Shown: positions 6,709 through 42,465 of the stretch, piece after piece
Numbering within the stretch: the stretch's first letter is position 1
Layout: the number at the start of each line of letters is the position of its first letter
Assembly (NCBI GenBank): GCA_041736175.1
Contig: JBGSUI010000111.1
Location: 1 to 44,940 of the forward strand
DNA from: Oligoflexales bacterium
GTDB lineage: Bacteria > Bdellovibrionota_B > Oligoflexia > Oligoflexales > CAIYRB01
Length of the DNA stretch: 44,940 nucleotides
Reading direction: 5' to 3'
Made by a program: the position numbers and the translations under genes
Notes under the pieces: generated by a model
Database searches by the model: none
What the model was told of the DNA's origin: nothing
The model's input: the letters and a program-made list of their open reading frames with translations, nothing else

Positions 6709-7662
6709 CTACGGCCCATAAGACCCTGTTCCTGTGTCGCTGGATGCAGGAACCCCGGATGTGCTGCCACCGGTTCCGCTGGTGCTTCCTGCTCCAGCGG
6801 GCGGGGTGGTCCCGTTACCTGTGCCTATTCCAAGACTCTCTAAGGTGACGCGGGGACAGGATGCAGGGGGAACTCCCGCCTGGGAGGTTTCTTCGATCCA
6901 AAAGGTGGCATAGGATACGCTGCCCGCCTGGGGAGCATTCACAAAATGAAAAGTAGTTTTGCGATTGCCATCCGTAGAGCATCCGTAGAGGGTAAAGCCT
7001 TTACCAGAGTAGTCGGCAAACTTGGGCTCGAGGGAGGATTTGTACCTGGGAAACTTAGCGATCACATCAGACTGGGTGCAGCAATAGTTGGCAAGACTTT
7101 CGCCACAGGTCCCTGACTTTCCAGGTGCGGAGCTGCTGACGGCGACCCAGACTTTGCCCTGATCGTAGCAGCTGGAGATTCCGGGACCTGGAGTCCAAGT
7201 AGAATAGGTGGTCCCTGGGGTTCCCGTGCCAGGGCTAGGTGCTGGGGTGGTTCCTGTGCTTCCCGGGCTTGAAGTGCCTGTCCCTGTGGATCCGTTTTGG
7301 CTGCCATTCCCTTCTCCATCCGTGTTCGGGGAGCTGTCGCTTGCCGTGGAGGGGGCTGGGCATTGGCTCGTCCCTGGCGTGCCGGTGGCGGTGTCCGTAG
7401 CGATCTTAGCTGGATCCTCCGGATCTTCGTTTGGTACATTGGCCTCTTCAGGGGGCGCGTCATCTGATTGGAGCTTGAGACAGGCCGTCGTCGACGGACT
7501 CGGTGGGGTCACCGCAGTATCGGTGGCGGTGCCCGTGGCGGGCGCTGGCCCACCCCCGCCTTTTCCACCCTTTTTTGATTCGCAGGCTGTCTGGGGTAGC
7601 AAAAGGAAACCGACAGTTAGAGCAAACTTGAGGCCAAGCGTTTGGGATTGAAGGGTTTTCAT
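6709..7662 (-). CDS. Hypothetical lipoprotein with Ser/Thr/Gly/Pro-rich linkers and a Cys-containing domain
   Basis: GGAG RBS before ATG 7662 (MKTLQ). Lipobox PQTA-C. Low-complexity GT/ST linkers flank a Cys-rich globular segment. Confidence 0.8.
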   Translation of the reverse strand: MKTLQSQTLGLKFALTVGFLLLPQTACESKKGGKGGGGPAPATGTATDTAVTPPSPSTTACLKLQSDDAPPEEANVPNEDPEDPAKIATDTATGTPGTSQCPAPSTASDSSPNTDGEGNGSQNGSTGTGTSSPGSTGTTPAPSPGTGTPGTTYSTWTPGPGISSCYDQGKVWVAVSSSAPGKSGTCGESLANYCCTQSDVIAKFPRYKSSLEPKFADYSGKGFTLYGCSTDGNRKTTFHFVNAPQAGSVSYATFWIEETSQAGVPPASCPRVTLESLGIGTGNGTTPPAGAGSTSGTGGSTSGVPASSDTGTGSYGP

Positions 7663-7732
7663 AGGTCTCCGCAATGATATGCCCGATAGGAACCGTGCAA
7701 AAAAATTAAGGCAACGATCAAAATCCGGCAAC

Positions 7733-7760
7733 TTATCGGCAGAATCCATAAGAATCTTTA
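7733..7760 (-). promoter_or_regulatory. sigma28 (FliA)-type promoter
   Basis: Minus strand TAAA-N16-GCCGATAA, ~70 nt upstream of ATG 7662. Confidence 0.7.
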
Positions 7761-11403: not shown

Positions 11404-12828
11404 ATGAAACACTCGGTTCGACAGACGGGCCTTTATAAATCAAAATTAGTTTTTTTAGTGGCCCTTGCACTGATGCTGGGCAACGCCATGCTGACTTCCT
11501 GCCGCCAAGAACCTTCACCATGGGTGGTCCAGGGGAGTGCCAGTGACGGGTCGTCGCAAACCTATGGGTTTCGGTTTGAACCAAAGAGTCACACCGAATT
11601 GATCGGTGACCGGTCTCTCTTGCGTATGGTAACCGACGACGAAGTCCTGACAGTCCTGAGACCTCTTGAGTCTTTTAAGGAGAAGGAGTTGGAGCAGGGG
11701 GAAATTGAGTGGATCGCCCCTCTCTTACCTGAAAACCGCCTTGTGATGGTGGAGCTGGATCATGAGTCGAGCCCCCTTGTCAGGGGAGAGCGCAAACGCT
11801 GGGGACCCTTGGCGCTGGTGGAACTCCCAGCTGCAGCATCGGCCCACAAGTGGCTTGGAACCCACCGCTTTTTTGTAGCAGAGCTGGAGACCTACGAGGG
11901 GCCTATGGTCCACGACACTTTGACCTACCGTTCCCCCTGGGCGCTGGGTGGGCATGATTTCGCGGGAAGCGATGTTGATCGGGCTTTTCTTGAGCAAAAG
12001 GTGGCGGAGTTTTCAGGAGCTAAGTCTTTTGAAACGGGATCAGGCTCGGCGCGGATTATGGAGCGAGGGTCGGATGCTGGGAGGCTCCTCGCCAGGAAGT
12101 GGATCAGAGAGCAGTTTGAGTCCATTGGCTACGTCGTCACGGAGCATACCTACCGAGGGAGATTCTCGGAGGGGGTTAACCTGGTGGCAGAAAAAGCCGG
12201 CAAAAACTCCGCGCGGTCCCTGATCCTTTCGGCCCACTACGACTCCGTAGGCAATGCGGGGGCTGATGACAATGGTGCTGGAGTGGTGGCCATGCTGGGG
12301 GTGGCCCAGGGTCTTAAAAATACTTTATTAGATATCAATCTGAAGATGGTGTTTTTCGACCAGGAGGAGAAGGGTTTGGTGGGATCTAAAGCCTATGTGG
12401 ACTTTCTTAAGAGCTCAGGTGAATTAGGCCAAGTGGTTGGCAATATCAACTTCGAAATGTTAGGGTTTAACGGGCGAAAGGACGGAGCTTTCCATGTGAT
12501 CGACTGCAACGAAAACACCTCGGCACGGCTAAGCCAGGGGTTTCTTGAAGTCCTCAACTCCCAGCCTGACTTGGAGTTACACCGCGTGAAGGCCTGTACC
12601 AACCGAAGTGATCATGCCAGTTTTTGGCGGTATGGTAAGCCTGCTGTGGTGGTGTCGCAAAACTTCTTTGGCGGCGACGGCAATCCATGCTATCACGAAG
12701 CCTGCGATAAGGTTGACCGAATGGATTTTGATTATATGCTACGGCTTACAAAGCTAACAGAGGGGGCTGTGCTCTCTTTGATAAGTCGAATGAAAGACGA
12801 AACAGATAGGGGGTTGTATGAAGGGTGA
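11404..12828 (+). CDS. M28 family zinc peptidase, lipoprotein
   Basis: Motifs [42 protein letters not shown]. Lipobox MLTS-C. Confidence 0.9.
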
Positions 12829-13288
12829 TCCTAAGGTTATTGAAATGTTAAACGATGTATTAACGGGTGAGTTAACTGCGATCAATCAGTATTTTCTTCA
12901 TGCCCGTATGTTGAAAAACTGGGGGTACGATAAGATTGGAAATACTGTCCATAAGGAATCCATCGATGAGATGAAACATGCCCAGAGCCTTACGGACCGG
13001 ATCCTCTTCTTAGAAGGATTTCCAAACCTCCAGCGGCTTGGCAAGCTTAACATCGGCGAGACGGTTCCCGAGCAGTTTGTGGCCGATCTCAAGCTTGAGC
13101 ACGAAGCGCTGCAAAAGCTTAAGAATGGTATTAAGCTATGCTTTGAAGCTGCGGACCATGTATCCCGGGAGTTGCTTGAGGATATTTTAATCGACGAAGA
13201 GCGCCATGTGGATTGGCTGGAGACCCAAATAGGGCTGGTTCAGAAACTAGGGGAGATCCCTTATCTTGCAGAGCAGTTGGGTGGATAG
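12818..13288 (+). CDS. bfr: Bacterioferritin
   Basis: MKGD start, [20 protein letters not shown] (ferroxidase Glu/His and heme Met), [12 protein letters not shown]. Overlaps the M28 stop by 11 nt. Confidence 0.97.
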
Positions 13289-13542: not shown

Positions 13543-13558
13543 TGGCACGGAAATTGAA
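13543..13558 (+). promoter_or_regulatory. sigma54 promoter
   Basis: TGGCACG-GAAA-TTGAA (perfect -24 element, GA variant at -12), ~100 nt before ATG 13659. Confidence 0.6.
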
Positions 13559-13658
13559 CGGTCACTTACCAATGGATAAGGATAAGTGACGGATGTCGGT
13601 TTACCAAAAGGTCAGAGTTGCAAAATCTAAATTAATTTTTTTGAAAGGTATAGTTGCC

Positions 13659-14501
13659 ATGATTTCACGAAAGATTCTTCTTTTAACTCTCGTCAGCGGC
13701 TGTCTTAATTCACCAGCTCCTGATAGTAAAGTCAACACATTAACACCTAATCAACCCTACTTTTTTTCCCAGTGTCGTGGGCCAGCTCAAATTGTAAAGC
13801 GCTTTCCTGGTTTAGACCTACAAATACGGGAAAATAAGACCTCCCGATTTCATCGTTTTGGATCGGCAGTCCCTGGACAATCGACCTACGTCCGGCAAGA
13901 GGTTAGACAAACAGAAACCACCTCTGAAAAAGGTATTCCCTGTGCCATGGCTCCTATCACAAGAATAGCAACTTTCTCTTCACCCATATATGACGAAGCC
14001 ATCAAGAAGGGGAGCATCGTGACGCCCATGGAAAACGGCGTACCAGACAATTATTCATGCGGAAAAGTGACCGAAATGCTCAATGTTGGAGATCTGAAGG
14101 AAGGAACGCAAGTTCTTATTCCCTTGGCACCCTATTTTGAATCTTCTCCTCCATGGAATGGCGCTGGCTACAAAAATCCCTATGCAATCTTCACGATCCA
14201 AAAGATCATAACAACAATCGGTGGGATTTCTTCTCCAGACATGTTGTCCCTGGAAGGGGTTTTTGAGCCTATCGAAATTACCAACTATACCGACACTAAA
14301 GTCATCGAGCCCACTCAGATATCCAAGGTTCTCACGGGCGCTCCCCTCTACAAGGGATGGGTGGCTATTGCGGATTCCTTGGATTTCATGCCTCAAGCCA
14401 CTTTTGGCTGGGTTCGGAGTGCTCTCTATCTTGAACGGATGGAACAGGTGAATGGTAAATTTCTACCAGCTATGAAGTTAGTGGTGGGTAACTGGAACTG
14501 A
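13659..14501 (+). CDS. Hypothetical lipoprotein
   Basis: MISRKILLLTLVSG-C lipoprotein signal from ATG 13659, AAGGT upstream. No family recognised. Confidence 0.75.
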   Translation: MISRKILLLTLVSGCLNSPAPDSKVNTLTPNQPYFFSQCRGPAQIVKRFPGLDLQIRENKTSRFHRFGSAVPGQSTYVRQEVRQTETTSEKGIPCAMAPITRIATFSSPIYDEAIKKGSIVTPMENGVPDNYSCGKVTEMLNVGDLKEGTQVLIPLAPYFESSPPWNGAGYKNPYAIFTIQKIITTIGGISSPDMLSLEGVFEPIEITNYTDTKVIEPTQISKVLTGAPLYKGWVAIADSLDFMPQATFGWVRSALYLERMEQVNGKFLPAMKLVVGNWN

Positions 14502-14532
14502 GCCTTCTAGGATGCGATTTTTTGTAATGCCG

Positions 14533-14910
14533 TTACTGTCGTATTTGTAAAGTCGATTTTCCTCGCACCGTCAAGCATAGATAGTCTCGGCCTTCGGGTA
14601 CACTTAGATATCGAGGCTGACTGGTGCCAATTCCCGTCGTAAACACAAAACGGTATTGATCATGATCCACAACGCACTGGATAAAGGCTGGATCGTTTTT
14701 GAGGTGGCAACACTTATCAGCAGTGGTCATTAAGACTTTCCAGTTGCAGGGTTGGGCAACAGCTCCAAGGGGTGGTGTTTTTTGTGCGCTCGCTGGATTG
14801 GACTCAGAGGCGGGCGGCTGCGTTTGCTGGGCGGTCCTACAGGCTCCAGTGATCACTGCTAAACAAAGGACGACTACCGATCCTAAGACACTCTTTTTTT
14901 TGCTTTTCAT
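14533..14910 (-). CDS. Small Cys-containing lipoprotein
   Basis: MKSKKK, hydrophobic stretch, then ITGA-C. Several further Cys. AAGGGA RBS. Confidence 0.75.
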   Translation of the reverse strand: MKSKKKSVLGSVVVLCLAVITGACRTAQQTQPPASESNPASAQKTPPLGAVAQPCNWKVLMTTADKCCHLKNDPAFIQCVVDHDQYRFVFTTGIGTSQPRYLSVPEGRDYLCLTVRGKSTLQIRQ

Positions 14911-14969
14911 AGGATGATCCCTTTTTTTGAAATTTCCGACTTTAATTCTATCTAATTGGTGATCTTTGC

Positions 14970-14985
14970 TGCAAAAGTTGATCCA
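14970..14985 (-). promoter_or_regulatory. sigma54 promoter
   Basis: Minus strand TGGATCA-ACTT-TTGCA, 60 nt upstream of ATG 14910. Confidence 0.6.
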
Positions 14986-15064
14986 AGTTTAGACCCGGTT
15001 TCTATTTTGACGCCATAGCTATCTTTTGGGCCGGAAAGCAGCTGGAACTGAACAGAAAGGAACC

Positions 15065-15080
15065 TGGCATAGATTTTGAT
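15065..15080 (+). promoter_or_regulatory. sigma54 promoter
   Basis: TGGCATA-GATT-TTGAT (GA variant at -12), ~60 nt before ATG 15142. Confidence 0.55.
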
Positions 15081-15141
15081 AAAGAGTGGGCATTCCATTG
15101 ATCCACCTTCTTTTATAATGGTGTTCGTTGAGGAGTGTTGT

Positions 15142-16446
15142 ATGCTTTTGTTACACATGGCTATAATCCTGTCAGTGAGTTTAGGTGGATGTCGCACCTC
15201 TCAGAGCAACGATTCTGGCTCGCAACTCCAAACCTCCGGAGTGGGCCTCCCCAGACCTTTGCGCATCCCCAACATCCAGCCGCAAGCCACGCGGCCGATC
15301 TTACAAAAACTACGTGGTGTTACCCTGGCGTCCAAGGTGGACCCACTCCAGAGAGTCACCCAGGAGATCTTAAAGGAGCTGATGGGCAATCACCTGGAAT
15401 ATGTTGATCATACCCCCTTGAACGTTCGGGACGAAAATACGGAACTTTATAATCTCGTCAGAGATCTGGTCCAGTTAGATAAGGATCAACATTTTCCAGC
15501 CATACTTCCTCCCCTATTCTCCGCATCACACACCACACCTATCGACGCAGCCTTATTTGATTCTGCGTATACTTATTTTGGCCCTTGGAAACTCATGTCT
15601 GCATTGACCCTTGAGGTCCATCGACAGAGGAATTTTCTCAAGCAAAAATCTACCCCTACTCCCCAAGATTTGAAGCGTATTGATGATTTAACTGCTATGC
15701 TCCTTGTTTTGGAGTTTAGATTTGTACCCATCACCACACCCGAATACCACTTTACCAAGCAAGCTGTCTTGGTCTCCGGCAAAGTCGATTTGGAGCAAAC
15801 TCTAGTTTCGGCTCGATACGTCGGAGAGATAGAAAACTCCCATCAACCCGTAAGCCCTACGCCAAGACAAGTGCTGAAAGATCACATCAGCTCGGGCGAT
15901 ATAGAACATATCAAGACCCTAGCCTCAGGCTATCACTACTATGCAACGGGGCGCATTCAACAAGTTAAAGAAAAAATCGGCCCGATTTTTGGCTGTTTGG
16001 CAGCACTGTATAAAACTTGGGCAGATTTCCGTAAAGCCATTAAACGATTTGACGATATTTTCAAACGACCGGATATACCTCGAGCCCCTGGCGAAGTTTT
16101 TCGAGGGATAGCCAACTTTCCAAAAGACGCCTTGGAAAATTGGCTCACTCTTGCTCGTCAGGGTAAGCCTCTCTATCTTGGACTCGACAACCAACCCGAG
16201 GTGATGTTTACCTCGAGGAGTTATAGAGTGGCCGTTGCCTATCGAGATAGGATTGACCATAGTCCTGGAAATTACCAAGTGATCCTTGCCATCACTCAGA
16301 AAAATGGAGTTAGTATTGAAAACATCGTCACTAATGCCAAACCCCAAGAAGTCATGATTCATAGCTCCCAACAATTTAGAGTGGAAGAGGTGTTAAAGGA
16401 TCCGAACACACCCATGGCGGTCGTGATCAAGCTTCAAGAAATTTAG
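15142..16446 (+). CDS. Lipoprotein with C-terminal ADP-ribosyltransferase (R-S-E clade)-like domain
   Basis: GAGGAG RBS and lipobox SLGG-C. C-terminal EVFRGI ... MFTSRSYRVA ... ILAITQKNGVSI ... PQEVMI ... FRVEEV follows the order and spacing of the ARTC fold. Confidence 0.7.
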   Translation: MLLLHMAIILSVSLGGCRTSQSNDSGSQLQTSGVGLPRPLRIPNIQPQATRPILQKLRGVTLASKVDPLQRVTQEILKELMGNHLEYVDHTPLNVRDENTELYNLVRDLVQLDKDQHFPAILPPLFSASHTTPIDAALFDSAYTYFGPWKLMSALTLEVHRQRNFLKQKSTPTPQDLKRIDDLTAMLLVLEFRFVPITTPEYHFTKQAVLVSGKVDLEQTLVSARYVGEIENSHQPVSPTPRQVLKDHISSGDIEHIKTLASGYHYYATGRIQQVKEKIGPIFGCLAALYKTWADFRKAIKRFDDIFKRPDIPRAPGEVFRGIANFPKDALENWLTLARQGKPLYLGLDNQPEVMFTSRSYRVAVAYRDRIDHSPGNYQVILAITQKNGVSIENIVTNAKPQEVMIHSSQQFRVEEVLKDPNTPMAVVIKLQEI

Positions 16447-16481
16447 AATTTTTTGGCAAAAATCTCTTCACCAAGAGTTAG

Positions 16482-16790
16482 TCAACCATTGGAGCTTCTA
16501 ATTTCAAATTCCCGACACCTAATCCGAGAGCATTCATTTCGCTTCCAGATATAATCAGCATTTTTCTTTGCAAAATCAGGATCTGAACGATCTGAACGAT
16601 CTAGTGGCTTTAGGCTATCGGCCTCAATGTCGCAGATGATCTTCTCCATACATGCGTTTGAACTATCCGTTCCCGAAACAGATGTGGTTTCTGATGGGGG
16701 AGAGGATTCAGAGCCCTCTTTAGAACATGCAGCCGAAAGCGCCATGATTAAGCATCCGGCGTAAACACTAAGTTTTGCATTCCCGTACAT
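16482..16790 (-). CDS. Small lipoprotein
   Basis: GGAG RBS, lipobox LSAA-C, Ser-rich linker and four further Cys. Confidence 0.72.
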   Translation of the reverse strand: MYGNAKLSVYAGCLIMALSAACSKEGSESSPPSETTSVSGTDSSNACMEKIICDIEADSLKPLDRSDRSDPDFAKKNADYIWKRNECSRIRCREFEIRSSNG

Positions 16791-16873
16791 TTAAAGACTC
16801 CGAATTGTTTTGTTAGACGCAAAGTTATAGACCATCCCTAAGAGTCCAAGAATCCTTGGAACCCTAGAGATCA

Positions 16874-16889
16874 TGCAAATTATGGTCCA
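16874..16889 (-). promoter_or_regulatory. sigma54 promoter
   Basis: Minus strand TGGACCA-TAAT-TTGCA, 84 nt upstream of ATG 16790. Confidence 0.55.
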
Positions 16890-16927
16890 TAAAACCCGCG
16901 AAACAAGCCACACGATCGCTCGATGGA

Positions 16928-17503
16928 TTAAAAGACCTCTTTTGATCCGCTATCACTCCAACTAATAGCTGCAAGGACTTCACTCAACTCTTTAAGTTCT
17001 GGTGATGGGTTATTTCTATAATCGTTATTTGTTTGGTTTATTACGTTCATAAATATGGGCTTTATCACGCGGCTGACCCTGATATCTGCATCTCTGTTGG
17101 TTGGGTCTTTAGGATCTGGAAAATGGGCTGAGCGACGGTCGTTTCCAGCGAGCGCGTCTGAATTGATAAGAGTTGTAATAAAAATTTCCTTTAGTTTAAA
17201 TGGGTTCGGGTAACCACCCGCAACGCTTCTTGCCTTAAGGAGACCCGTCTGGAGTTTTTTGGCCAAAAGAGCTGGCACAGTGCCGCCATTCATGATTGCT
17301 GCCCTAGCATTGGCGAAAAAAATCTCAGTGAATTTATTTTCCTGAACTTCATTTAATCCAAGGGTTTCCGTTCCTTTTATGTCCGAATCTGATGCGGATG
17401 GATGTGTTGAAGTCTTGCATGCAGGATAGATTGAGAGAAGCAGTAATAATAGAGTTGGTTTGCTAGCGAATCGAATCAATGGTCTCGATGCAAAGTAATA
17501 CAT
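16928..17503 (-). CDS. Hypothetical helical lipoprotein
   Basis: AAAGGG RBS. Leu-rich signal ending IYPA-C. Confidence 0.75.
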   Translation of the reverse strand: MYYFASRPLIRFASKPTLLLLLLSIYPACKTSTHPSASDSDIKGTETLGLNEVQENKFTEIFFANARAAIMNGGTVPALLAKKLQTGLLKARSVAGGYPNPFKLKEIFITTLINSDALAGNDRRSAHFPDPKDPTNRDADIRVSRVIKPIFMNVINQTNNDYRNNPSPELKELSEVLAAISWSDSGSKEVF

Positions 17504-17559
17504 AGTAGCCCTTTCTGAGTGTTATTTGAAAATCAATGATGCTAATTCACTGTTCTCGA

Positions 17560-17575
17560 AGCAAGAATTGAGCCA
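17560..17575 (-). promoter_or_regulatory. sigma54 promoter
   Basis: Minus strand TGGCTCA-ATTC-TTGCT, 57 nt upstream of ATG 17503. Confidence 0.7.
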
Positions 17576-17719
17576 AAAATCTCCTAACCTTTATTTGAAG
17601 TATGTTAGGAAGTTGGCTACTGGGAAAGCCTAGTAAACTGTTAAAAGGTTGAACACCTGGTAGGTACCGGTAAGTAACCATATGTCTATATTTTTATGGG
17701 GCTTATTGTTTTGGAAGGC

Positions 17720-17735
17720 TGGCATCAAATGTGCA
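17720..17735 (+). promoter_or_regulatory. sigma54 promoter
   Basis: TGGCATC-AAAT-GTGCA, 75 nt upstream of ATG 17810. Confidence 0.65.
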
Positions 17736-17809
17736 TAGGATTCTTCTCATAAAGTGATAGTCAAAAATGGTTTTAGACTTGATTTAAGCGAAACTAAATT
17801 GGAGATAAA

Positions 17810-19678
17810 ATGAAGACATTTGCATATGGGATGAAGACTCTACTGGTTGATTTCATACGATGCTTTGTGCCCTTGATGGGGACAATCCTATGGATGCAAG
17901 GTTGTATGAAAAGTCTAAATCCTCAAGATAAAGAGAGTTCATTAGATGGTGGGAGCGGTGCCATTGATGCCGTGTCTGTCGAGCATCCATTGACGCCACT
18001 GGCCCAAAAAATCAGAGAAAAGTCACTAGTGGCCTTAAAGGAAATCTACAAAAAGAATTTGTCGCCAGATCAACTTAAACTCAGTGCTGGTGATGGCGGG
18101 CTTCCTCAACCCGTTGCCGAAGCGATTCTTGAGGTGCTGAAGTCCCAGAGTAGCGGAGGTGATGTGAGTTCAGAAAAATATCCCTGCAAGATAAATAGCA
18201 ATTTAATAAAGCCCTATGAAGTGCTTTATGCACTACAGCGGGCTGGGCTTGGTCCGATGACAAGTGACGATAAATTAGGCGAGTTGTCAAGATTCCTCAC
18301 TAACAAGAGATGGATGGATGTGCTCGGGTATCCGTTAAAATCGACAGAGCTCATGATTGCCTTAGAAAAGTGGTTTACTCGTCTTGAGCGAGAGAATCCA
18401 CGAGAAGTCGGTATTCCGGAAGTTTCCCGTTCACTTGGGCTCAAGAAAGTCACGTTGCCGGACCGTTATTTCGATTTCGCGACCTTTGATAGAGATATGT
18501 TTCCTAATCCAGGTAACCTAGAGACCCACGTGAGCTGGATTAATCATATACTTAAAAAGAACGAAGTTCCGCTTATGGATAAAAATCAAAGGCAGCTGCG
18601 GTGTTTTGGGGCAGGGATCGTCACCCGCTTAATTTTTGTGAAAAATCCAAATGAAGGCTATAATTATTCCAACTTTTTTGAGAGTCTACGAAACGTTGAT
18701 GTTTTTGAATATGTGAAAGCCATCGAATCAAAAAACTTTATTTCAGAGCATAGGCCCGAGCGTAATGTGGACACTAAATCGTTAGTTAATTATATCAATA
18801 CGAAGAATCAAATTGATACTTTGGTCATCAATTTAAGTTTTCCCACTGATTCTATGCGAAGGAGTGGCTTTTTTGGTCAGGTGGATGTACCAATACTAAA
18901 ATCATTATCGGATCCAGTCCGCAATAGGATTAGGACGATTGTGTTCGATCTTTGGGGGCTGACAAAGGTTATTGAGGAAGATTCTTGTTCCTTCAGATTG
19001 TTGAAACCAGAGGCGGTCACTTCATTGCTAACCGAGGTGAAGAGGCTACTTCCTCAGGCCGTGAATTTTGGGGTAGATGACACTCATTACACGTGTAAAT
19101 ATGACCATAAAAGTATCGATGTCGATTTGGTACAGTCAGTGATCCAGGGAATCGATAAATTGGGCGCTGAAAAGCTGCTTCTAGAAACCCATAATAGAAA
19201 CAAAATTCTAGATAATTTTCCTACATTGAACAAAATTAAGTCAGTCAAGATTCAAGTTGATTCCAGTCAAAACAAACGCTGTGGGTACGGGATGTCTGAG
19301 TTTAAGCTAAGCAATCTTATGAGTAGCTTGAAAAATGTGAAAAACATCTGGTTTCAGGATGCTACAGATGGAGTTAATACAGAAAAATTAAACGATCTAT
19401 ATGAAAGTTGGAAAAAATCATCAACACACTCAAAGCTGGAAAAGATCCGCTTTTCCTGTACAGAAGGATTATCTTCTGGAACAAGTCAAAAGACAATTGA
19501 CCTTCCTTATACACATTTTCCGAGTCTTCGAACAATTGTCAGTGAAAATTGCAATCTTAACCTACCGACATCTCCGCTGATCTTAAAAAAGATTATACTT
19601 GGCAATCCCAATGGGGTGCAGTGGATTCCAAGGTCAGATATCGAAGAGCTTGTTTCAGAAAAGAGTGGCTTACAATGA
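17810..19678 (+). CDS. Large lipoprotein with C-terminal LRR-like repeats
   Basis: GGAG RBS and lipobox WMQG-C. C-terminal half has recurring [LIV]xx[LIV]x[LIVF] strands (IRTIVF, AEKLLL, IKSVKI, VKNIWF, LEKIRF, LRTIVS, LKKIIL). Confidence 0.75.
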   Translation: MKTFAYGMKTLLVDFIRCFVPLMGTILWMQGCMKSLNPQDKESSLDGGSGAIDAVSVEHPLTPLAQKIREKSLVALKEIYKKNLSPDQLKLSAGDGGLPQPVAEAILEVLKSQSSGGDVSSEKYPCKINSNLIKPYEVLYALQRAGLGPMTSDDKLGELSRFLTNKRWMDVLGYPLKSTELMIALEKWFTRLERENPREVGIPEVSRSLGLKKVTLPDRYFDFATFDRDMFPNPGNLETHVSWINHILKKNEVPLMDKNQRQLRCFGAGIVTRLIFVKNPNEGYNYSNFFESLRNVDVFEYVKAIESKNFISEHRPERNVDTKSLVNYINTKNQIDTLVINLSFPTDSMRRSGFFGQVDVPILKSLSDPVRNRIRTIVFDLWGLTKVIEEDSCSFRLLKPEAVTSLLTEVKRLLPQAVNFGVDDTHYTCKYDHKSIDVDLVQSVIQGIDKLGAEKLLLETHNRNKILDNFPTLNKIKSVKIQVDSSQNKRCGYGMSEFKLSNLMSSLKNVKNIWFQDATDGVNTEKLNDLYESWKKSSTHSKLEKIRFSCTEGLSSGTSQKTIDLPYTHFPSLRTIVSENCNLNLPTSPLILKKIILGNPNGVQWIPRSDIEELVSEKSGLQ

Positions 19679-20045: not shown

Positions 20046-20426
20046 TTAATTTAAGAGAGCGTCGCGGACTTCAGCCGGACTGCAGTAGGCGAGGCGACTT
20101 TGTCCCGTCAGGCGAGTATTGATAAAAAAAGCAATGGTTTCATAGTCATAGCCTAACTGGGCCAGCCCACGGGCCAGGCTTCTGAAATAATCTTCAACCA
20201 GAGTCTCAAGGGATTCGGATTCTTCCATAAAATTATGGCTTTGTAGGCGTTTGACCAGCTGGTCCAGATCTTTTTGATACCAGTCTTCTTGGGGGGGGAT
20301 CAAATTGCCGAGCTGATATTCAATATCCCGAATTTTAAGAATCAACTCATGGGCCCAGGGGGGGCATTGGTCTGGAATTTCGGGGTCAGGGGTCCTGGAA
20401 TCCGCGGGTTTTAATGGGGATGTCAT
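20046..20426 (-). CDS. Hypothetical protein
   Basis: 126-aa ORF with GGAGG RBS filling the intergenic space. Confidence 0.7.
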   Translation of the reverse strand: MTSPLKPADSRTPDPEIPDQCPPWAHELILKIRDIEYQLGNLIPPQEDWYQKDLDQLVKRLQSHNFMEESESLETLVEDYFRSLARGLAQLGYDYETIAFFINTRLTGQSRLAYCSPAEVRDALLN

Positions 20427-21822: not shown

Positions 21823-24800
21823 ATGGTGACCCATAAATTAAGACTTGCTATCCATGTCCTGGTAATCGCCCTTATCAGCACCTACTTTTGGACCCAGTCT
21901 CGGTATCCAGATCTTAACCGCAAAGCCATGATGGCCAAGAACGCATCGGTTGCTGATACGATTTCCATGTATCCCATCTTTATCGTTAAACCTGAACATC
22001 CTACCTACCAAAAAATCGCTTATACAACGGCCAACTGGGTGAATGACAACAAAAAAGGCATGACCTTTGGGGTGATCATAGGGGCTATGTTTCTTTCTCT
22101 CATCGGCTATCTCAGGTTTAAACCTTCCGAAAACAAGTTGGTCAGTGCCCTCTACGGGACTATATTAGGGTCGCCCCTTGGAGTTTGTGTCAACTGTGCG
22201 GCCCCTATTTTTAAAGGAGTCCTCCAGTCTAAACAGATTGAGTTCTCCTTTGCGATGATGCTCAGCTCACCGACCATGAATATGGTCGTTGTCACCATGT
22301 TGTTTAGCCTTTTTCCTCTCTATATGGCTGTGACTAAAATAGCGTTTACCTTGATCGTCATTTTTGGTGTCGTACCGCTCCTCTCCCACACACTGGCTAA
22401 GACCGTTAAGATCCAGGGTTTTGAAGCTCTCTCACGCAAAGACCAAGGTTTTACCTTTGACGTCAAATCTAACCCCTCAGGAGCCCTTTTGGGCGAAATC
22501 TGGGGTGCGGTGGTGGATTTTTTTAAGGCTTTTATATTTCTAGGGGTGCGAACTGTGCCGCTGATGTTTGTCGCTGGATTTTTGGGTTCAGTGGTCTCCC
22601 ATCTTATTCCCTTCGAGGCTCTTAATGGTGCCCAAGGTCCCTTGGCCTTAATCGTTACCGCAGCGGTAGGGTTGTTTCTGCCGGTGCCCATGGCTTTTGA
22701 CTTGGTCCTCACCAACGCCCTTTTTGTCGGAGGACTCTCTCCATCCATTGTGATGACTCTCCTGTGCACCCTTGGAATCTTTAGCTCCTATTCGTTTATG
22801 ATCGTCTGGAACAGTGCCTCACCAAAGTGGGCCTTGAATCTTTCGGGGGCGATCTTTGCTTTAAGTCTGATCGCCGGATTTTTAGGCGACTGGATGGACC
22901 GGGTTTTTTACCTTAATCCCAATATCGCCGACTACCAAGCCCTGAGGCGTCCTACGAACCCCTCCACCCTAGGTCAAGGGATTAAACAAGCGGGTCCTGT
23001 CGAGGGGGCAACCCTTAGCCAAGGAGGCTTAAAGCCCGTAGAATGGGCAACTGTCTTTGAAGATGACACCCTGAGGGTGGCTTCCCAACCTTTTAAGGTA
23101 GGAGCCAAAGCGACCGGGCGTTTTGAAAAACACGAGGGTGTCGACCTAGGTTTGGTCCAAGGCTTTGTCTACGGGATTCGCGATTATCCAGACCCTTTCT
23201 GGTTTGGTCGTGGAACGGCTGGAGGTGACGTCAACCGGGACGGCTACGTCGACGTCGTGTTTGGATCCGATCATGGTCCGCGGCTTTATTTGAATCAGGG
23301 TGACCAAACCCATGGCCCCCGGTTTGGGGAGGTTCAAGATTTTATTCCCGAAATGAAAGACATGATGGTCTTTGCGGTCGCCTTGGTCGACTGGGATCAA
23401 GATGGCTGGCTTGATCTGTTTATGACGACTTTCAACAAAGGCAATTATCTTTCAAAAAACAATCAAGGACAGTTTGGTAGCCCCCTTAAAATCCCTAATC
23501 TGGGTGGGGTGATGACTATCAGTCCCGCCTTTGCTGATTTTAATGGCGATGGGCTTTTGGATGTTTATAACGGGAATATGGCCCTAGGAATCATCACTGG
23601 ATTTCGCGCCTATGGGCCAGGTCGTAGTAACGGCATGACCTTACAAAAACCAGGGGGAGGTTTCGAAGAGGTCCCCCTCGACGTCAAGGATGGTGAAACC
23701 ATGTCGACCATCGCCTCGGATGTTAACGATGATGGTTTTGTTGATATCTTTAACGGCAACGACTTTGTGGTCCCTGATTACTGGTTTCTGGGACAAAAAG
23801 ATGGCAAGTTTACCCCGGCGCCCCAACCGGGACTCGGCAGCCTAGCCACTCCCTTTTATTCGATGTCCGTGGATACGGGGGATCTTAACAACGATCTTAA
23901 GACGGATTTTGTCCTTACGGGAACCGTCCAGATGGCCCCTGGAGTCGGCGAAAGTCCAATCGATGGTGTGTCGGCACTGGACTATACCAGACGCAATGAT
24001 ACTGCAGAAGTCTGCACTAAAAGGATCAAGCAAACTTCTTTTAGAGATAATTGTTTACTTAACCGATCCACGGATCACCTCATACCTTTTTATAAAAACC
24101 GTAACCTAAACATCAAAGACTGTATGGTCCTTACGGATCCCGTGTCCAAGGACGACTGCCTCTTGTCGGTGATGTGGATGATTGTTACCTCCAATGTAAA
24201 CATCACCAACTGTGAGGAGCAGTTTGGGTTTGACAAAAAAATCAAAGAGGTGTGTGAAATCTTTATCAAAGCGGGAGCTACCAAGTATGCGGCGGAGTTT
24301 AGTGGTTTTGCCCCTCAGGTGGATGCTCCGGCTGTTTATTTAGGCCAAGGGCAAGGTCAATACACTCCTCTGGCCATAACCCATCCGGGTGGGTGGACGT
24401 GGAGTACTAAGTTTGCTGATTTTGATCGGGATGGTTTCCTCGATATCTTTAATGCCGAGGGTGTGGTGCGTGAGGGAGGATTTGGGTTTAATGTCCTCCT
24501 CCACAATCAGGGGTTAGGAGCGGCGGGTGGAAAGGGCTTTGAACAAAAACAGTTTTCTTGGAATCTTGTGGATCCGTTCTACCTCTTCTCATTTACCTTG
24601 ATAGACTACGATCATGATGGGGATCTGGATATGATCGGCAACTCATCCATCGGTCCCGTGCAGGTCTACGAAAACCGGCTTAACGATCACCAGGCCATCG
24701 CCTTTGCCCTTAAGTTTCCGGAGGGCAACACCTTTGGTCTGGGGGCTAGGGTCACTATCGAAGACGAAGCGGGGATGAAACAGATCCGTGAGGTCAAAGC

Positions 24801-24981
24801 GGGGGGTGGATTTCAAAGCTTTGACGCGCCCAGGGTGTATTTTGGACTGGGACAAAAAACGGTTATTAAAAGAGTGTGGATAAGCTACCGAGGCCAGGAG
24901 CGTGAGGTGGCCGTAGAGGCATTTAAGGCGGGGGCTCTTTATCATCTTGAGTTTAAAAAACCCCTGAAAAGCATTTTTTGA
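21823..24981 (+). CDS. Fusion of ArsP/DUF318-type permease with FG-GAP propeller and ASPIC/UnbV domain
   Basis: N-terminal ~360 aa is multi-TM with PLGVCVNCAAP and SSPTMN. Seven DxDxDGxxD-type Ca-binding motifs. C-terminal GARV ... REVKAGGGFQS ... YFGLG (ASPIC/UnbV). Confidence 0.85.
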   Translation: MVTHKLRLAIHVLVIALISTYFWTQSRYPDLNRKAMMAKNASVADTISMYPIFIVKPEHPTYQKIAYTTANWVNDNKKGMTFGVIIGAMFLSLIGYLRFKPSENKLVSALYGTILGSPLGVCVNCAAPIFKGVLQSKQIEFSFAMMLSSPTMNMVVVTMLFSLFPLYMAVTKIAFTLIVIFGVVPLLSHTLAKTVKIQGFEALSRKDQGFTFDVKSNPSGALLGEIWGAVVDFFKAFIFLGVRTVPLMFVAGFLGSVVSHLIPFEALNGAQGPLALIVTAAVGLFLPVPMAFDLVLTNALFVGGLSPSIVMTLLCTLGIFSSYSFMIVWNSASPKWALNLSGAIFALSLIAGFLGDWMDRVFYLNPNIADYQALRRPTNPSTLGQGIKQAGPVEGATLSQGGLKPVEWATVFEDDTLRVASQPFKVGAKATGRFEKHEGVDLGLVQGFVYGIRDYPDPFWFGRGTAGGDVNRDGYVDVVFGSDHGPRLYLNQGDQTHGPRFGEVQDFIPEMKDMMVFAVALVDWDQDGWLDLFMTTFNKGNYLSKNNQGQFGSPLKIPNLGGVMTISPAFADFNGDGLLDVYNGNMALGIITGFRAYGPGRSNGMTLQKPGGGFEEVPLDVKDGETMSTIASDVNDDGFVDIFNGNDFVVPDYWFLGQKDGKFTPAPQPGLGSLATPFYSMSVDTGDLNNDLKTDFVLTGTVQMAPGVGESPIDGVSALDYTRRNDTAEVCTKRIKQTSFRDNCLLNRSTDHLIPFYKNRNLNIKDCMVLTDPVSKDDCLLSVMWMIVTSNVNITNCEEQFGFDKKIKEVCEIFIKAGATKYAAEFSGFAPQVDAPAVYLGQGQGQYTPLAITHPGGWTWSTKFADFDRDGFLDIFNAEGVVREGGFGFNVLLHNQGLGAAGGKGFEQKQFSWNLVDPFYLFSFTLIDYDHDGDLDMIGNSSIGPVQVYENRLNDHQAIAFALKFPEGNTFGLGARVTIEDEAGMKQIREVKAGGGFQSFDAPRVYFGLGQKTVIKRVWISYRGQEREVAVEAFKAGALYHLEFKKPLKSIF

Positions 24982-28844: not shown

Positions 28845-31800
28845 TTACTGGATGTTTCCCAAGGAGGCTATCTTACCAAATGCCATCGCCCCCTCGATTT
28901 GGAGTCCTCCCAGGGCCGTGAGCCCCTGGAGCACCCCGAGGTCGCTGCGCAAGACTTGCTCGTCAGCTTTTTGGACCTCGGAGCTGGTGGTCAAACCAGC
29001 CTGCCAGGACCCTTGCACCGCTTTTTGGGCCTTCAGAGCAGCCTCCCTAAGGGATAAGGCAGACCTGAGGACATCGAGGGCCTGGGACCACCGGACCTGG
29101 TAGGAGGCGCGGATATCCTTAAAGTTAGAGTCGAGTTCCTGCCGCTGGGCGGCGAGTTCGAGCCTTTGCCGGGTGGCGTCTGCCACTTGGCGGTGACGGG
29201 TTCCTCCGTCGAGGAGAGTCCATTGGAGTTCGACAGCGGCGATATGTTGGGGGTCTTGGTTGGGGTTGCCTTCAAACCATTGGCTTGACCGACTGAGACT
29301 GAGGCCGACGGTTGGATAAAAGGCTGCATCCTGGGTCTTAGCCGTGGCCTCAAGCACTTTTTCAGCTTGCTGTAAGGATTCGACGCTTTTGATCCCTAAA
29401 CTATCTTGGACGCCCATCCCAGCCAGTGGCGGAAATCGCGGATGTCCTGGGGGAACAGGACCCGTCAGCTTAAACTTCCGGGCCAAGGCCATATAAAGCT
29501 GCTTTTCCCGAGCCACCGCCTGATGCATTTCGAGGCGGCTTTGTTGGTAGGAAGCCTCTGCCTGGGTCAGGTCGATCGTCGCGAGAGTTCCCGCCGTTAC
29601 GCGATCCTTGATAAGATTCATCCGCCGGAGAGCGACTTGGGAGGCTCGGGTTAAAATCTCGGCGAGGGACCGTGCCGCTGAGTATTCCAAGAGGACTTGG
29701 GAATGCTGCAAAAAACGAGCTTCCTTTAGGGCTCCCGTCTGGATCTCTTTTTGGGCTAGGACCGCTTTGGCTAGGTCTAAGCCGACGATGGCCTGGGTGT
29801 TGTAGAGGGGAATTTTGGCGCCTATAGTCACCTGATCTTGTTGTTTAGGGATGATCACCGTGTTGGTTTGGATCGGGCCTCCTAAGGTGTCAGGAAGGGG
29901 AAGGGTGATCGCCTGGGTAAACCCTGGTTGAGCCCATTGGCGGCCCGCTGTCACCTGGACACCACCCGCAAAGGCAAGTCGTGAGCTGAGGGTCGCCGCA
30001 TCGGAGGTGACTTGGAGGGCTTCTAGCTTGAGGACTTCGCTGCCAGTAGGATCCACATAGTTAAGGACTTGTTTGGTGAAGGAGGCTGGCATCTCACCTA
30101 AAAGTTGAAAGGCCTCGTTGATTTCAGGCACGGGGGCTTGAGCCCGGCTTTCACCCCCTCGACCGCCTACCAACACAAAACAAATAAGTGTTGAGGCTAT
30201 TTTTTTGGTGTTATAATCTAAGTCAGGCGCCTCCTTGCCTTTCCTGCGGCGTTGCTGCCAGGAGCGGATCTTTCCGATAAACCCAAAGATAGCGGGGACC
30301 ACCACCAGGGTCAGAAAGGTCGAAGAGAGGACGCCGCCGATGATGGCGATCGCCATGGGGCTGCGAAACTCCGAGCCACCACCGCGCATCAAGGCTGTTG
30401 GGATCATCCCGGCGACCATGGCGGCGGAGGTCATAAAAATAGGACGGCAGCGCTCTCGGACACTTGCTGAGACCGCCTCGCTTAGGGAAACCCGTTTTTC
30501 CCATTGGCCGATGGCGTCCACGAGGAGGATGCCGTTTTTTGCCGCAAGACCCATCACAAAAATCATGCCAATGATAGATCCCATGGCGAGGCCATGGCCC
30601 GAAAGGGCTAGGGCATAAAAGGCACCTACGGTCGCCAGGGGAAGGGATAATATGATCACAAAGGGTCGCAGCAGGTTTTCAAACTGGGCCGCTAGCACCA
30701 CAAAGATGCAGAACACGGCCCCTAGGAGTGCGATCATAAAATTTTCGATCATCTCCTCAAACATCTCGGCATCTCCGGCGATGGCTCCCGAGTTTGGTGG
30801 GGAGATCCCGGCGATGACTTCCTTCTTAATCTGGTCGAGGATCTGATCTAAAGGGCGCGTTCGGTCTAGGGTTGCCCAAAGAATCATGGCACGGCTTCGC
30901 TGCTCCCGATCGATCGCCGTCGCCCGTTGGGTGGTTTTTTGTTGGACCAGAGGAAACAGCGGTACGAGGCCTTTGGGTCCAGGAATCAACAAATAAGAGT
31001 TTAGCGATTCGAGATTGCGATCCTCCTCGCGCATCCGCACCACAAAAGGGATATTGTCATCCCCGACATTTCCCGCATCTAGACCGGTCAGGGCAAGACG
31101 CCCCGAAAGCTCAACGGCCTCGGACGAGGTTCCTCGGTAGGCCAGCTCGGTCCGGTCGATCACCACATCGAGGGCGGGACCAAAGGAGCCGGTGTCGATT
31201 CTTGCATTGGCTATGCCCGGAATAGCGAGCAGACGCTCACGGGCTTTTTGGGCCTCCAGGTCAAGCTGGACCAGATCGCTGCCATAGATGGTGAGCATCA
31301 CGGGAGCCTGCATCCCGGCGCCCTCAAAAGGCGGAGGGTCGAGGATCAGCCAGTCGGCTTCGAGACCTTTGAGCCGTCCCAGAGCTTCTTGGATCAGATC
31401 CAGGAGCCCCCGTTGGCGGAGGGTTTTATGGACAAACATCACCCTGATATCGGCGGTGTTGGCAGCGTTTTTTCCGCCCTCCCTGGCAAAAACATCGGTC
31501 ATCCCTTCGAGACCTTGCAGTCTTTTGGCGGCATCGCGGACTGTTCTTTGAAACTCCGCCCGGGTGGTCCCTGGTTTTGCCTTAAGGGAGAGCACAAACT
31601 GGCCGCGGTCTTCGAAGTTTAAAAAATCCATGCCCTTTTGGCCGATAAGATACACTCCAGACAATAAGATTAGGATCGTTGCGACGGAGACCCAGAAAGG
31701 CCTGGTGAAAGCCCACCGCCCCACTTTTTCAAAGAAGATTTCGAATTTTTCGAGACCACCGCGCCATCTCTGCCAAAAGGCACCTTGCAGCATCGAAGGT

Positions 31801-33859: not shown

Positions 33860-33897
33860 ATTGGGTCCTTTTGAATTGAAACAGTCCTTCAGAAAAT

Positions 33898-33924
33898 TTA
33901 TCGGCTTAATGAAGTTAGGCTTTA
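33898..33924 (-). promoter_or_regulatory. sigma28 (FliA) promoter for the adaptor-RND operon
   Basis: Minus strand TAAA-N15-GCCGATAA, the exact consensus, 39 nt upstream of ATG 33859. Confidence 0.8.
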
Positions 33925-33929
33925 GGAGA

Positions 33930-33938
33930 GGGGGGGGG
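33930..33938 (+). repeat. G9 homopolymer between RBS and start codon
   Basis: AGGAGA-GGGGGGGGG-ATG at 33924-33941. Confidence 0.85.
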
Positions 33939-35261
33939 ATGAATCTCATACAGGTTGCTATCCGTAATGTAGGTCGCAACAAGAGACGCAGTTTCATCAC
34001 AATGTTAACCGTATTCCTGGGGGTCGTCGTCTCAACCCTGACCCGGGGGCTTCTCGATGGACTGCAAGGCGAAATCAAGAGCAATCTTACGCGAAAGATG
34101 TACGGAGACCTCCAAGTTCATAGGAAAGGCTATCAAGATACCTTGGAAAGCCAACCCTATAAACTCCTGATACCTCAAAAAATCCAAAATCTAACTTGGG
34201 ATCAAGCCCCAAGGCTCAAGGTGATGGCTTTAGTCAACCACCAAAAAAGCCAGTCAACGACACCGGTCATGATCACAGGAATCGACTCGACCCTGGAAAA
34301 TATCGTTTGCCCTCGATTTATGTCCGCCGTGCAAACAGGAAAGATGCTAGATTCGACTCTTGAACGTGGCCCCGTCTCTTCCACTCCCACCTCCCAGGAA
34401 GCAGAGGATCTAGGAGAAGCCTCCGGCCTTGGGAGCCAACAAGATGATCAATCCTTAAAGGGTGTAGGTCCACGGGCCGAAGGATTTCAGCAGATCCTGC
34501 TGACTCCGAGTCTTGTGCGGGGAATGGGTGCAGAAGTAGGCGATGAAATGATCGTGCTTATCGCAGATAAAGACAATATGCAGCAGGCCATCATCGCCCG
34601 CTTGGTCGGTGTGATCGACTTAGGGATCCCGGGGGCCGCGGCGCGCATGGCCTGGATGGACCTCGCTCAGTTGCAAAAGACTTTAAACGTCCAGGGCCAA
34701 GCTTCCGAAATCGCTATTCGCCTCCCTGTAAGCACAGACCTTAGGGATGGACAAAACCATCTTTTGAGCTACCTAGGTGCGGATCAAATGGTGGAGACTT
34801 GGGAGGAGTTGGGAGGTTTTCTCCGGGACGCAATGGCCTTGCAAAATGTGGTGTTTACCGCAGTGGTTGGCATTATGTTTGCCATTGTGATGGCTGCCAT
34901 CGTCAACACATCTCTGATGACGGTCATGGAGCGAACCCGCGAAATCGGCAGCCTTATGGCTCTAGGATATCGTCGAAAACATATTCTCACTCTTTTTCTG
35001 GTGGAATCTGCAGTCATAGGGGGCCTGGGCGGGGTGCTAGGGCTTATGACTGGAGTCTTCGGAATTGGGATCCTTAATTTTACGGGAATCAGCCTTAAAC
35101 TCCCAGGTCAAGTTATTGCAACGACCCTCTATCCCACCGTGTCTCTAACGTTCTTATGTTTGCTTTTTTCACTGGCAGTGGGTTCTGCCCTATTGGCAGG
35201 CTTTATACCTGCCCACCGCGCCAGTCACCTAAAACCTGTAGATGCTTTGACATCGACTTAA
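33939..35261 (+). CDS. FtsX/LolE-like ABC transporter permease
   Basis: AIRNVGRNKRRSFIT N-terminus, one TM, a large periplasmic domain, ERTREIGSLMALG and LKPVDAL. Confidence 0.92.
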   Translation: MNLIQVAIRNVGRNKRRSFITMLTVFLGVVVSTLTRGLLDGLQGEIKSNLTRKMYGDLQVHRKGYQDTLESQPYKLLIPQKIQNLTWDQAPRLKVMALVNHQKSQSTTPVMITGIDSTLENIVCPRFMSAVQTGKMLDSTLERGPVSSTPTSQEAEDLGEASGLGSQQDDQSLKGVGPRAEGFQQILLTPSLVRGMGAEVGDEMIVLIADKDNMQQAIIARLVGVIDLGIPGAAARMAWMDLAQLQKTLNVQGQASEIAIRLPVSTDLRDGQNHLLSYLGADQMVETWEELGGFLRDAMALQNVVFTAVVGIMFAIVMAAIVNTSLMTVMERTREIGSLMALGYRRKHILTLFLVESAVIGGLGGVLGLMTGVFGIGILNFTGISLKLPGQVIATTLYPTVSLTFLCLLFSLAVGSALLAGFIPAHRASHLKPVDALTST

Positions 35262-35264
35262 CTG

Positions 35265-36014: not shown

Positions 36015-36019
36015 AATTT

Positions 36020-42299: not shown

Positions 42300-42465
42300 C
42301 GCCCGCCTCCACATCAGAGTCTATACGGTGCCGCACTCAGACTCAACACGGGGCTCAGTGCAGTACCATAAAATGTTGACAATCCTATTCATTTAAGTGT
42401 AACCATTCAAAAGTTCAGTAGTGCTCAATTGAGCTTTAAAAATGATCTTTCAAGGAGGAATGACC

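Follow-up and report, generated by a model that had tools for sequence, protein, structure and literature searches.

Six genes for predicted exported proteins with individual putative sigma-54 promoters in an Oligoflexales bacterium

Genes and promoter motifs between bfr and h126

We analysed a 44,940-nt stretch of contig JBGSUI010000111.1 from an Oligoflexales bacterium (the window), in which six open reading frames (ORFs), here called g1 to g6, lie between a bacterioferritin gene (bfr, 12818-13288) and a gene encoding a conserved 126-aa protein (h126, 20046-20426). Each of the six is preceded by a -24/-12 motif of the sigma-54 (RpoN) promoter type, and each encodes a hydrophobic N-terminus that ends in cysteine. 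An initial annotation had read the region as a new system of co-regulated, lipid-anchored effectors. The genes run in the order + - + - - +, and the array and its borders are laid out as follows, with promoter scores from the position weight matrix (PWM) described below:

12818-13288, + strand: bacterioferritin gene (bfr), left border of the insertion
13543-13558, + strand: g1 promoter, TGGCACGGAAATTGAA, score 16.2, GA at -12
13593 or ATG at 13659 to 14501, + strand: g1, probable lipoprotein; the start at ATG 13659 gives MISRKILLLTLVSGC
14533-14910, - strand: g2, predicted lipoprotein of 125 aa, signal …LAVITGAC; low coding score, yet with a Shine-Dalgarno-like motif and a promoter
14970-14985, - strand: g2 promoter, TGGATCAACTTTTGCA, score 15.75
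15065-15080, + strand: g3 promoter, TGGCATAGATTTTGAT, score 14.0, GA at -12, back to back with the g2 promoter
15142-16446, + strand: g3, probable lipoprotein of 434 aa (MLLLHMAIILSVSLGGC) with an ADP-ribosyltransferase (ART)-like C-terminal domain at about residues 310-434
16482-16790, - strand: g4, predicted lipoprotein of 102 aa, …LIMALSAAC, GGAG 7 nt ahead of the ATG
16874-16889, - strand: g4 promoter, TGGACCATAATTTGCA, score 15.0
16928-17503, - strand: g5, predicted exported protein of 191 aa, non-canonical lipobox LLLLLSIYPAC
17560-17575, - strand: g5 promoter, TGGCTCAATTCTTGCT, score 20.7, the highest of the six
17720-17735, + strand: g6 promoter, TGGCATCAAATGTGCA, score 13.0, the lowest of the six, GTGC at -12
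17810-19678, + strand: g6, predicted lipoprotein of 622 aa, …ILWMQGC; tiny family, C-terminal two-thirds leucine-rich repeat (LRR)-like
20046-20426, - strand: conserved 126-aa gene (h126), right border of the insertion

The PWM was seeded with 114 intergenic, gene-facing matches to TGGCAC-N5-TTGC from the host genome, with at most one mismatch, and matches scoring at least 13 were taken as sites. Positions that had not been selected for were also sigma-54-like in the seed set, with A or T after TTGC in 93% and T ahead of TGG. As a sigma-54 promoter we regarded a gene-facing TGGCAC-N5-TTGCW element with its GG and GC doublets exactly 10 nt apart. The GG doublet, the spacing and the orientation were correct in all six array sites, and GC stood at -12 in four of them. 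With scores of 13.0-20.7, the six elements lie where the initial annotation had placed them, each facing its own gene. Between the -12 base and the start codon there are 36 or 102 nt for g1 (two possible starts), 61 nt for g2, 63 nt for g3, 85 nt for g4, 58 nt for g5 and 76 nt for g6.

Nine sites scored at least 13 in the window, both strands included: the six of the array, one ahead of a trypsin-like gene and two within coding sequence. The trypsin-like gene had been said to share the design of the array genes, and it does, with a -24/-12 motif and a lipoprotein signal:

1921-1936, + strand: consensus sigma-54 promoter of the trypsin-like gene, TGGCACGGTCGTTGCT, score 17.2
1992-2891, + strand: gene for a trypsin-like predicted lipoprotein, ATG at 1992, N-terminus MKIKFKIVNLLVLVVTFSSC

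The other two matches, at 7636 (-) and 34868 (+), both lie within coding sequence and were rejected as promoters. The first of them (7621-7636, - strand, score 15.9) falls inside the signal-peptide codons (…LGLKFAL…) of a lipoprotein-like gene at 6709-7749 (LLPQTAC). It is probably a false positive, as Leu/Ala-rich leader sequences can mimic the motif. Sigma-70-like matches in the array region were at chance level (15 against 12.9±3.3 expected).

The hydrophobic N-termini of g1 to g6 end in LVSGC, ITGAC, LGGC, LSAAC, IYPAC and WMQGC, respectively. We scored lipoproteins with a regular expression similar to PROSITE PS51257 (basic n-region, uncharged h-region, lipobox Cys at position 14-40), which g2 and g6 passed by script and g4 by manual reading. 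The lipobox that the initial annotation had assigned to all six is thus present as a hydrophobic, Cys-ended N-terminus in six of six and under the strict rule in three. For lipoprotein processing, the genome has two matches each to Lgt and LspA, above cut-offs.

A Shine-Dalgarno-like motif, read by eye, lies ahead of the start in each of the six genes, which have GC contents of 41-49%. No Pfam family was found for any of them, including g1, g2, g4 and g5, and g6 gave only a sub-threshold match to MpPF1. PHROGs gave only weak matches to the C-termini of phage head-protein families; g2 and g4 were compared with Pfam and PHROGs alone. We found in the region neither repeats linking the six genes nor signs of a mobile cassette or mobile element carrying the promoters. 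The mixed orientation, the lack of any Pfam family and the lack of linking repeats mean that the array is not an operon but a row of unrelated genes, as had been proposed.

Sigma-54 sites and lipoprotein genes across the genome

Genome-wide, 5445 genes from an in-house ORF caller were examined for sites between -250 and +60 of the longest-ORF start. The sense-upstream zone, defined as the 250 nt ahead of genes, held 204 sites in 534,382 positions (382 per Mb), while other intergenic DNA held 46 in 1,097,536 (42 per Mb) and coding DNA 268 in 10.5 million (25 per Mb). Sites are thus 9-15 times denser in the sense-upstream zone than elsewhere. The derived false-discovery rate is about 11% overall and 3-22% per score bin. 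Genes of the flgF/G kind are classical sigma-54 targets, and the flgF/G-like gene, used as a positive control, has a site here (18.8) and in two relatives from the family.

Lipoproteins made up 107 of the 290 genes with a site (37%), compared with 369 of 5155 others (7.2%; odds ratio (OR) 7.6, p=3e-43), so that 22% of predicted lipoprotein genes (107/476) carry one. Hydrophobic N-termini were encoded by 202/290 site-bearing genes and 1866/5155 others. The enrichment, for which the initial annotation had suggested a genome-wide test, is strong and held in genes with at least 120 nt of upstream intergenic DNA (78/202 vs 181/1997 lipoproteins; OR 6.3, p=8e-26) and for sites strictly upstream of the longest ORF (87/476 lipoproteins vs 150/4969 other genes; OR 7.2). 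The antisense-strand control gave an OR of 0.73, which was not significant. Perfect TGGCAC-N5-TTGCW sites lay ahead of a lipoprotein gene in 14 of 33 cases, compared with 25 of 1500 random positions. Lipoprotein genes have a median of 59 nt (interquartile range 47-76.5) between the -12 base and the start codon, and the spacings of g1 to g6 fit this range. The promoter type found ahead of the array genes is probably the one that serves much of the lipoproteome in this lineage.

Lack of a known family does not set these genes apart. In random samples searched against Pfam (E<=1e-5), 15 of 20 sigma-54 lipoproteins (drawn from 104 eligible) and 14 of 20 site-less lipoproteins (drawn from 307 eligible) had no match; the absence of a Pfam family is thus no distinguishing mark of sigma-54 genes, and the 'orphan' status that had been attached to them was not borne out as such. 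The five sampled sigma-54 lipoproteins with a match were an amine oxidase, a trypsin-plus-pentapeptide protein, an SH3_3 protein, a RoxA-like cytochrome and a C-type lysozyme. Among the best 20 of 107 eligible non-lipoprotein targets, 8 had a Pfam family and 12 had none; non-lipoprotein targets include OmpA, BON, HSP20, a GH32/68-like enzyme, oxygenases and cytochrome c. Sigma-54 genes had median GC contents of 45.8% and 46.3%, against 49.1% and 49.0% for the others (p=2.8e-11 and 5.9e-13).

The array is the densest sigma-54 cluster of the assembly: it packs five called genes and g4 into 6.1 kb, and the runners-up hold four in 7 kb. Of 2000 permutations, 43 gave five sigma-54 genes among seven consecutive ones, and six were never reached.

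Relatives, the g3 and g6 proteins, and candidate regulators

In the relative G001, bfr (75% identity) is 395 nt from a gene pair formed by h126 and a cyclic nucleotide (cNMP)-binding protein gene, and the 6.7-kb array is therefore an insertion or a local expansion. In relatives G002 and G006 the homologue of the cNMP-binding protein was found alone within the 20 kb fetched. No homologue of g1, g3, g5 or g6 was found in 40 relatives, of which 11 share the family of the host and 29 its order. In large protein searches g1 and g6 matched only themselves, and g3 matched one metagenome fragment at 66% identity.

The large regulon itself is a family trait, as shown by counts of perfect sites well above a reversed-pattern control: 33 in this genome, 11-27 per genome among the 11 relatives from the family and 2-23 among the 29 from the order, with 0-6 control matches in every genome. 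The host RpoN is most similar to those of a metagenome-assembled genome (MAG; 71%), a Pseudobacteriovorax MAG (66%) and Oligoflexus MAGs (about 60%). The host has five trypsin-like paralogues (C250:1992, C232:21907-22671, C16:4172-4993, C136:57077-57829 and C47:23840-24487) with sigma-54-type motifs upstream (scores 17.2, 13.0, 11.0, 17.6 and 14.0), and four of the five reach 13. By comparison, none of six sister-genus homologues has a site (best scores 1.7-4.7), although five of the six are lipoproteins. This suggests lineage-specific rewiring of the trypsin promoters; the identities of 35-41% do not establish orthology.

The ART fold that had been proposed for g3 is weakly supported. An Atlas feature search placed residues 290-434 beside PF03496 ADPrib_exo_Tox clusters (0.96, 185 shared features), which we regard as a lead only, and the Pfam ART profile PF01129 matched below threshold (E=0.045; 13.5 bits against a 22.3-bit cut-off), with E 0.27 for a paralogue. 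The Arg of VFRG is invariant; g3 also has an 'FTSRS' stretch rich in S/T and, within 'PQEVMI', a Glu, spaced as in the R-S-E (Arg-Ser-Glu) ADP-ribosyltransferase class. At the putative catalytic position, g3 and the paralogue (QKE) have Glu, whereas the homologue with 66% identity has Ala. About 300 helical residues of no known family form the N-terminal part, the AlphaFold2 model (pLDDT 39) was unusable, and g3 had no match in metagenome contigs and no sequence match in the PDB. The paralogue of the ART-like domain (C51:3691-4236; L007:1399-1944) is a 181-aa non-lipoprotein with the stretch IQKEILL, and its best sigma-54 score is 3.4, that is, no site.

The LRR-like fold proposed for g6 likewise has weak support. 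Its model (pLDDT 58) predicts alternating strand-helix repeats over about residues 270-600. Foldseek returned 34 PDB matches at E<=0.001, with the LRR proteins NLRP9, D3/MAX2, COI1 and NLRP3 at the top; the best E value was 2.6e-5, at a TM score of at most 0.26 on this pLDDT-58 model. Atlas values were at most 0.87, and no Pfam LRR family matched. The genome holds three g6 paralogues at 24-27% identity; the lipobox Cys is invariant across the four members, and a sigma-54 site lies ahead of just one of the three paralogues. In 1.84 billion proteins the family has 15 representatives, the host's own included, several of them with lipoboxes. A search of genome contigs for g6 gave no match, and one with its homologue P0011 found no locus.

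The genome encodes RpoN (464 bits against a 277-bit cut-off) and 15 strong Sigma54_activat (PF00158) proteins, all with GAFTGA-like loops; the window holds neither an enhancer-binding protein (EBP) nor a secretion or delivery apparatus. K-mer, dyad and Gibbs searches found no common activator site ahead of the sigma-54 lipoprotein genes, and the single shared EBP of the initial annotation is not indicated; several EBPs with individual sites would escape such shared-motif searches. The best k-mer, TGAGCA, occurred in 17/107 compared with 59/1224 (p=1.8e-5 over 852 tests). The Gibbs sampler returned a weak A/T-rich motif, TGTCAA-N-TTTTTTG (8.0-8.5 bits compared with 6.4 bits in shuffled sequences), which we take to resemble an IHF site.

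One EBP subfamily of REC-AAA+-HTH (helix-turn-helix) architecture is a possible regulator of the expanded regulon. It has four copies here (C261:10727-12214, C209:43605-45089, C12:21512-22978 and C92:4026-5516), two of them 91% identical. At E<=1e-60, four of eight genomes of the sister genus have one to three copies each, and the three genomes that represent the other two genera lack it. At C178:8212-10925 and C171:18370-20747, EBP genes adjoin strong targets, a WelO5-like 2-oxoglutarate oxygenase (21.5) and a haem-oxygenase-like protein (20.6). Unlike the lipoprotein genes, these look like classical local EBP-target pairs.

Elsewhere in the window, the - strand at 40931-42314 encodes a HipBA-like trio: an Xre-type HTH protein (41952-42314), a separate Couple_hipA protein corresponding to the N-terminus of HipA (41491-41955) and a short HipA_C kinase part of 175 aa (40931-41458). 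The module is either a split hipA or a broken gene; in the split form it is reminiscent of the tripartite HipBST. At 28845-33263 (-) a 1472-aa fusion joins a complete AcrB-type RND pump (residues 4-996) and an outer-membrane-factor OEP domain (1126-1261) in an unusual single chain. A 1052-aa fusion at 21823-24981 (+) combines an ArsP-like permease (102-354) with FG-GAP repeats and ASPIC/UnbV, and its gene directly follows the cNMP-binding protein gene that is kept across the family. The row at 33861-37201 (+), with an FtsX/MacB-like permease, a LolA-like protein and a 393-aa gene of no known family, may be a lipoprotein-sorting or export module.

Interpretation of the array

We consider it likely, with a probability of about 0.72, that the six genes are single-gene units with their own RpoN promoters and belong to a genome-wide sigma-54 regulon of mostly exported proteins, chiefly lipoproteins. 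From the sequence, the best reading is that all six depend on RpoN together with an enhancer-binding protein. As in characterised sigma-54 systems, RNA polymerase carrying sigma-54 would be held as a silent closed complex on each -24/-12 element until one or more of the 15 AAA+ EBPs hydrolysed ATP and the promoter opened. The short-leader mRNA would then be translated and the product exported, with Lgt and LspA lipidating it at the final Cys of the signal peptide. The array itself is a lineage-specific, 6.7-kb site of insertion or expansion between bfr and a conserved gene pair, made up of low-GC genes with few or no homologues. The motifs with their enrichment, orientation and spacing, the lipoprotein link, the rpoN, EBP, Lgt and LspA genes and the insertion are read from the sequence, whereas promoter activity, co-expression of the six, the responsible activator and signal and the protein functions are inferred.

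Several observations weigh against this interpretation. Two of the six sites (g1 and g3) deviate at -12, with GA in place of the conserved GC, the g6 site scores just 13.0, and from the false-discovery rate of 3-22% per bin about one of the six array sites may be spurious. Three of the six proteins fall outside the strict lipoprotein rule: g1 is one residue short, g3 (LGGC) has no K/R and g5 has the non-canonical IYPAC. The gene sets come from a crude ORF caller, which missed g4, and from regular-expression lipoprotein calls. The lipoprotein link looks weaker in the two relatives sampled, where perfect sites lie ahead of a lipoprotein gene in 2/15 cases in G001 and 4/15 in G002. Among sequencing runs for this DNA, four DNA runs from one study, possibly the source of the assembly, were found, and no RNA run. 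Finally, the failure of the k-mer, dyad and Gibbs searches to find a shared activator site means that co-regulation of all genes by one signal is not established.

The arrangement resembles a known sigma-54 system in its working. According to Haft 2006 (PMC1569441), the PEP-CTERM/EpsH system with PrsR-PrsK comprises unrelated exported proteins, mostly in single-gene operons, with the sigma-54 motif a mean of 71 nt before the start. The genes described here share with that account the unrelated exported cargo, a single sorting signal and the single-gene sigma-54 units, at a median distance of 59 compared with 71 nt. Their sorting signal, however, is a predicted N-terminal lipobox and not a C-terminal PEP-CTERM, none of the six proteins has a Pfam match, and our k-mer, dyad and Gibbs searches found no upstream counterpart to the conserved 'motif 1' enhancer site of that system. 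Exosortase (PF09721) was not found in the host genome, which is 91.6% complete, and the best match to PrsR (TIGR02915) reached 393 bits, below the 502.6 cut-off. With no exosortase, no PrsR above cut-off and no PEP-CTERM, the array would be PEP-CTERM-like in its working but is not a member of that system.

Francke 2011 (PMC3162934) presents sigma-54 across phyla as governing the exterior of the cell, with lipoproteins and flagellar genes among its targets, and the regulon described here leans in the same direction, towards envelope and exported components, with lipoproteins and a flagellar gene included. The targets in that paper are conserved biosynthesis and transport genes, whereas here there are more than 100 single lipoprotein genes, mostly without a Pfam family and many of them lineage-specific. 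EbpA-RpoN of Leptospira interrogans directs two lipoprotein genes and amtB (PMC12655853), and Borrelia Rrp2-RpoN-RpoS controls lipoproteins indirectly, via RpoS (PMC3162934). Compared with the two direct targets given for Leptospira, the scale here would be about fifty-fold larger, and direct by promoter prediction. We found no published description of such a regulon in the literature on sigma-54/RpoN, lipoproteins, Bdellovibrio and Oligoflexia (subscription-only papers were outside the scope).

An alternative that we regard as possible, although we doubt it, is that the regulon is an envelope-remodelling, stress or developmental programme and that the six are structural or scavenging surface proteins, not weapons. 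The tie between sigma-54 and the exterior, lipoproteins included, in Francke 2011 (PMC3162934) is consistent with it, as is the Leptospira EbpA-RpoN control of two lipoprotein genes and amtB (PMC12655853). The genome points the same way in its excess of hydrophobic N-termini among sigma-54 genes (202/290 vs 1866/5155) and in the 8 of 20 top non-lipoprotein targets with a Pfam family, which include OmpA, BON, HSP20, cytochrome c and a GH32/68-like enzyme. An ART-like domain, however, is no obvious envelope building block, and genes that are lineage-specific and low in GC fit an accessory better than a core envelope function.

We find it unlikely that the six are a dedicated arsenal in which one EBP switches on lipid-anchored effectors together for predation or inter-bacterial antagonism, and in which g2 and g4 might be immunity proteins or helpers for the ART-like g3. 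The host does belong to Bdellovibrionota, the g3 C-terminus is ADP-ribosyltransferase exoenzyme-like (Atlas 0.96; Pfam ART E=0.045, paralogue 0.27), the g6 model matches LRR proteins, and other sigma-54 lipoproteins include trypsin-like proteins, a C-type lysozyme and an amine oxidase. The off-state of sigma-54, described as very tight in Haft 2006 (PMC1569441), would suit toxic cargo, and six consecutive sigma-54 genes are unexpected even at the 22% rate of lipoprotein genes (0.22^6, about 1e-4). Against this, neither a delivery apparatus nor an EBP lies in the window, no common enhancer site was found, the sole homologue of g3 has Ala in place of the putative catalytic Glu, and the g3 AlphaFold2 model has a pLDDT of 39. 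Moreover, Pfam content is alike in sigma-54 and other lipoproteins, and the regulon also holds a flagellar rod gene and genes for envelope and stress proteins of the OmpA, BON and HSP20 types. Compared with R-S-E ADP-ribosyltransferases (PF03496/PF01129), g3 differs in its predicted lipid anchor, its sub-threshold profile and its helical 300-residue N-terminal part; g6 shares the modelled strand-helix repeats of RNI-like and F-box-type LRR proteins but has no Pfam LRR match.

That the motifs are chance matches or have no function, with transcription coming from promoters of another type that escaped recognition, is very improbable: three of the six sites are off consensus at -12 or near threshold, and the 15.9 match inside coding sequence at 7636 indicates that strong false matches do occur, but a rate of 42 per Mb corresponds to about 0.006-0.01 per upstream region of 150-250 nt, which makes six of six by chance negligible, while orientation, spacing and the lipoprotein link are non-random and sigma-70 sites are no better than chance.

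The reading of the six as RpoN-driven single-gene units of a wider regulon keeps much of the initial annotation, namely its promoters, its stand-alone genes and the outcome of its genome-wide test, and drops the discrete system, the orphan specificity and the single EBP. What had been called a new system is best seen as the locally densest part of a regulon with about 240-290 promoters; apart from their location and kind of promoter, the six genes show no functional tie.

Promoters of the sigma-54 type are all-or-none switches, and the reason for reserving them for certain genes is debated. Tentatively, sigma-54 may have turned into the standard promoter for new exported proteins in this lineage, with low-GC, lineage-specific lipoprotein genes gaining -24/-12 elements of their own, in line with the site difference between the trypsin-like paralogues here and their sister-genus homologues. 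These proteins would make up a large, strictly silent, activator-gated surface and effector arsenal with a hot spot between bfr and h126, where new members would build up, the ART-like toxin candidate included. If our interpretation is true, the bacterium would be an unusually clean case of sigma-54 as a cell-surface sigma factor, with 107/476 lipoprotein genes that mostly have no Pfam family and are compositionally atypical. It would also suggest a route by which new exported genes are wired into a tight regulatory circuit, and it would give a list of candidates for surface or attack proteins from a branch of the predatory phylum Bdellovibrionota that has received little study.

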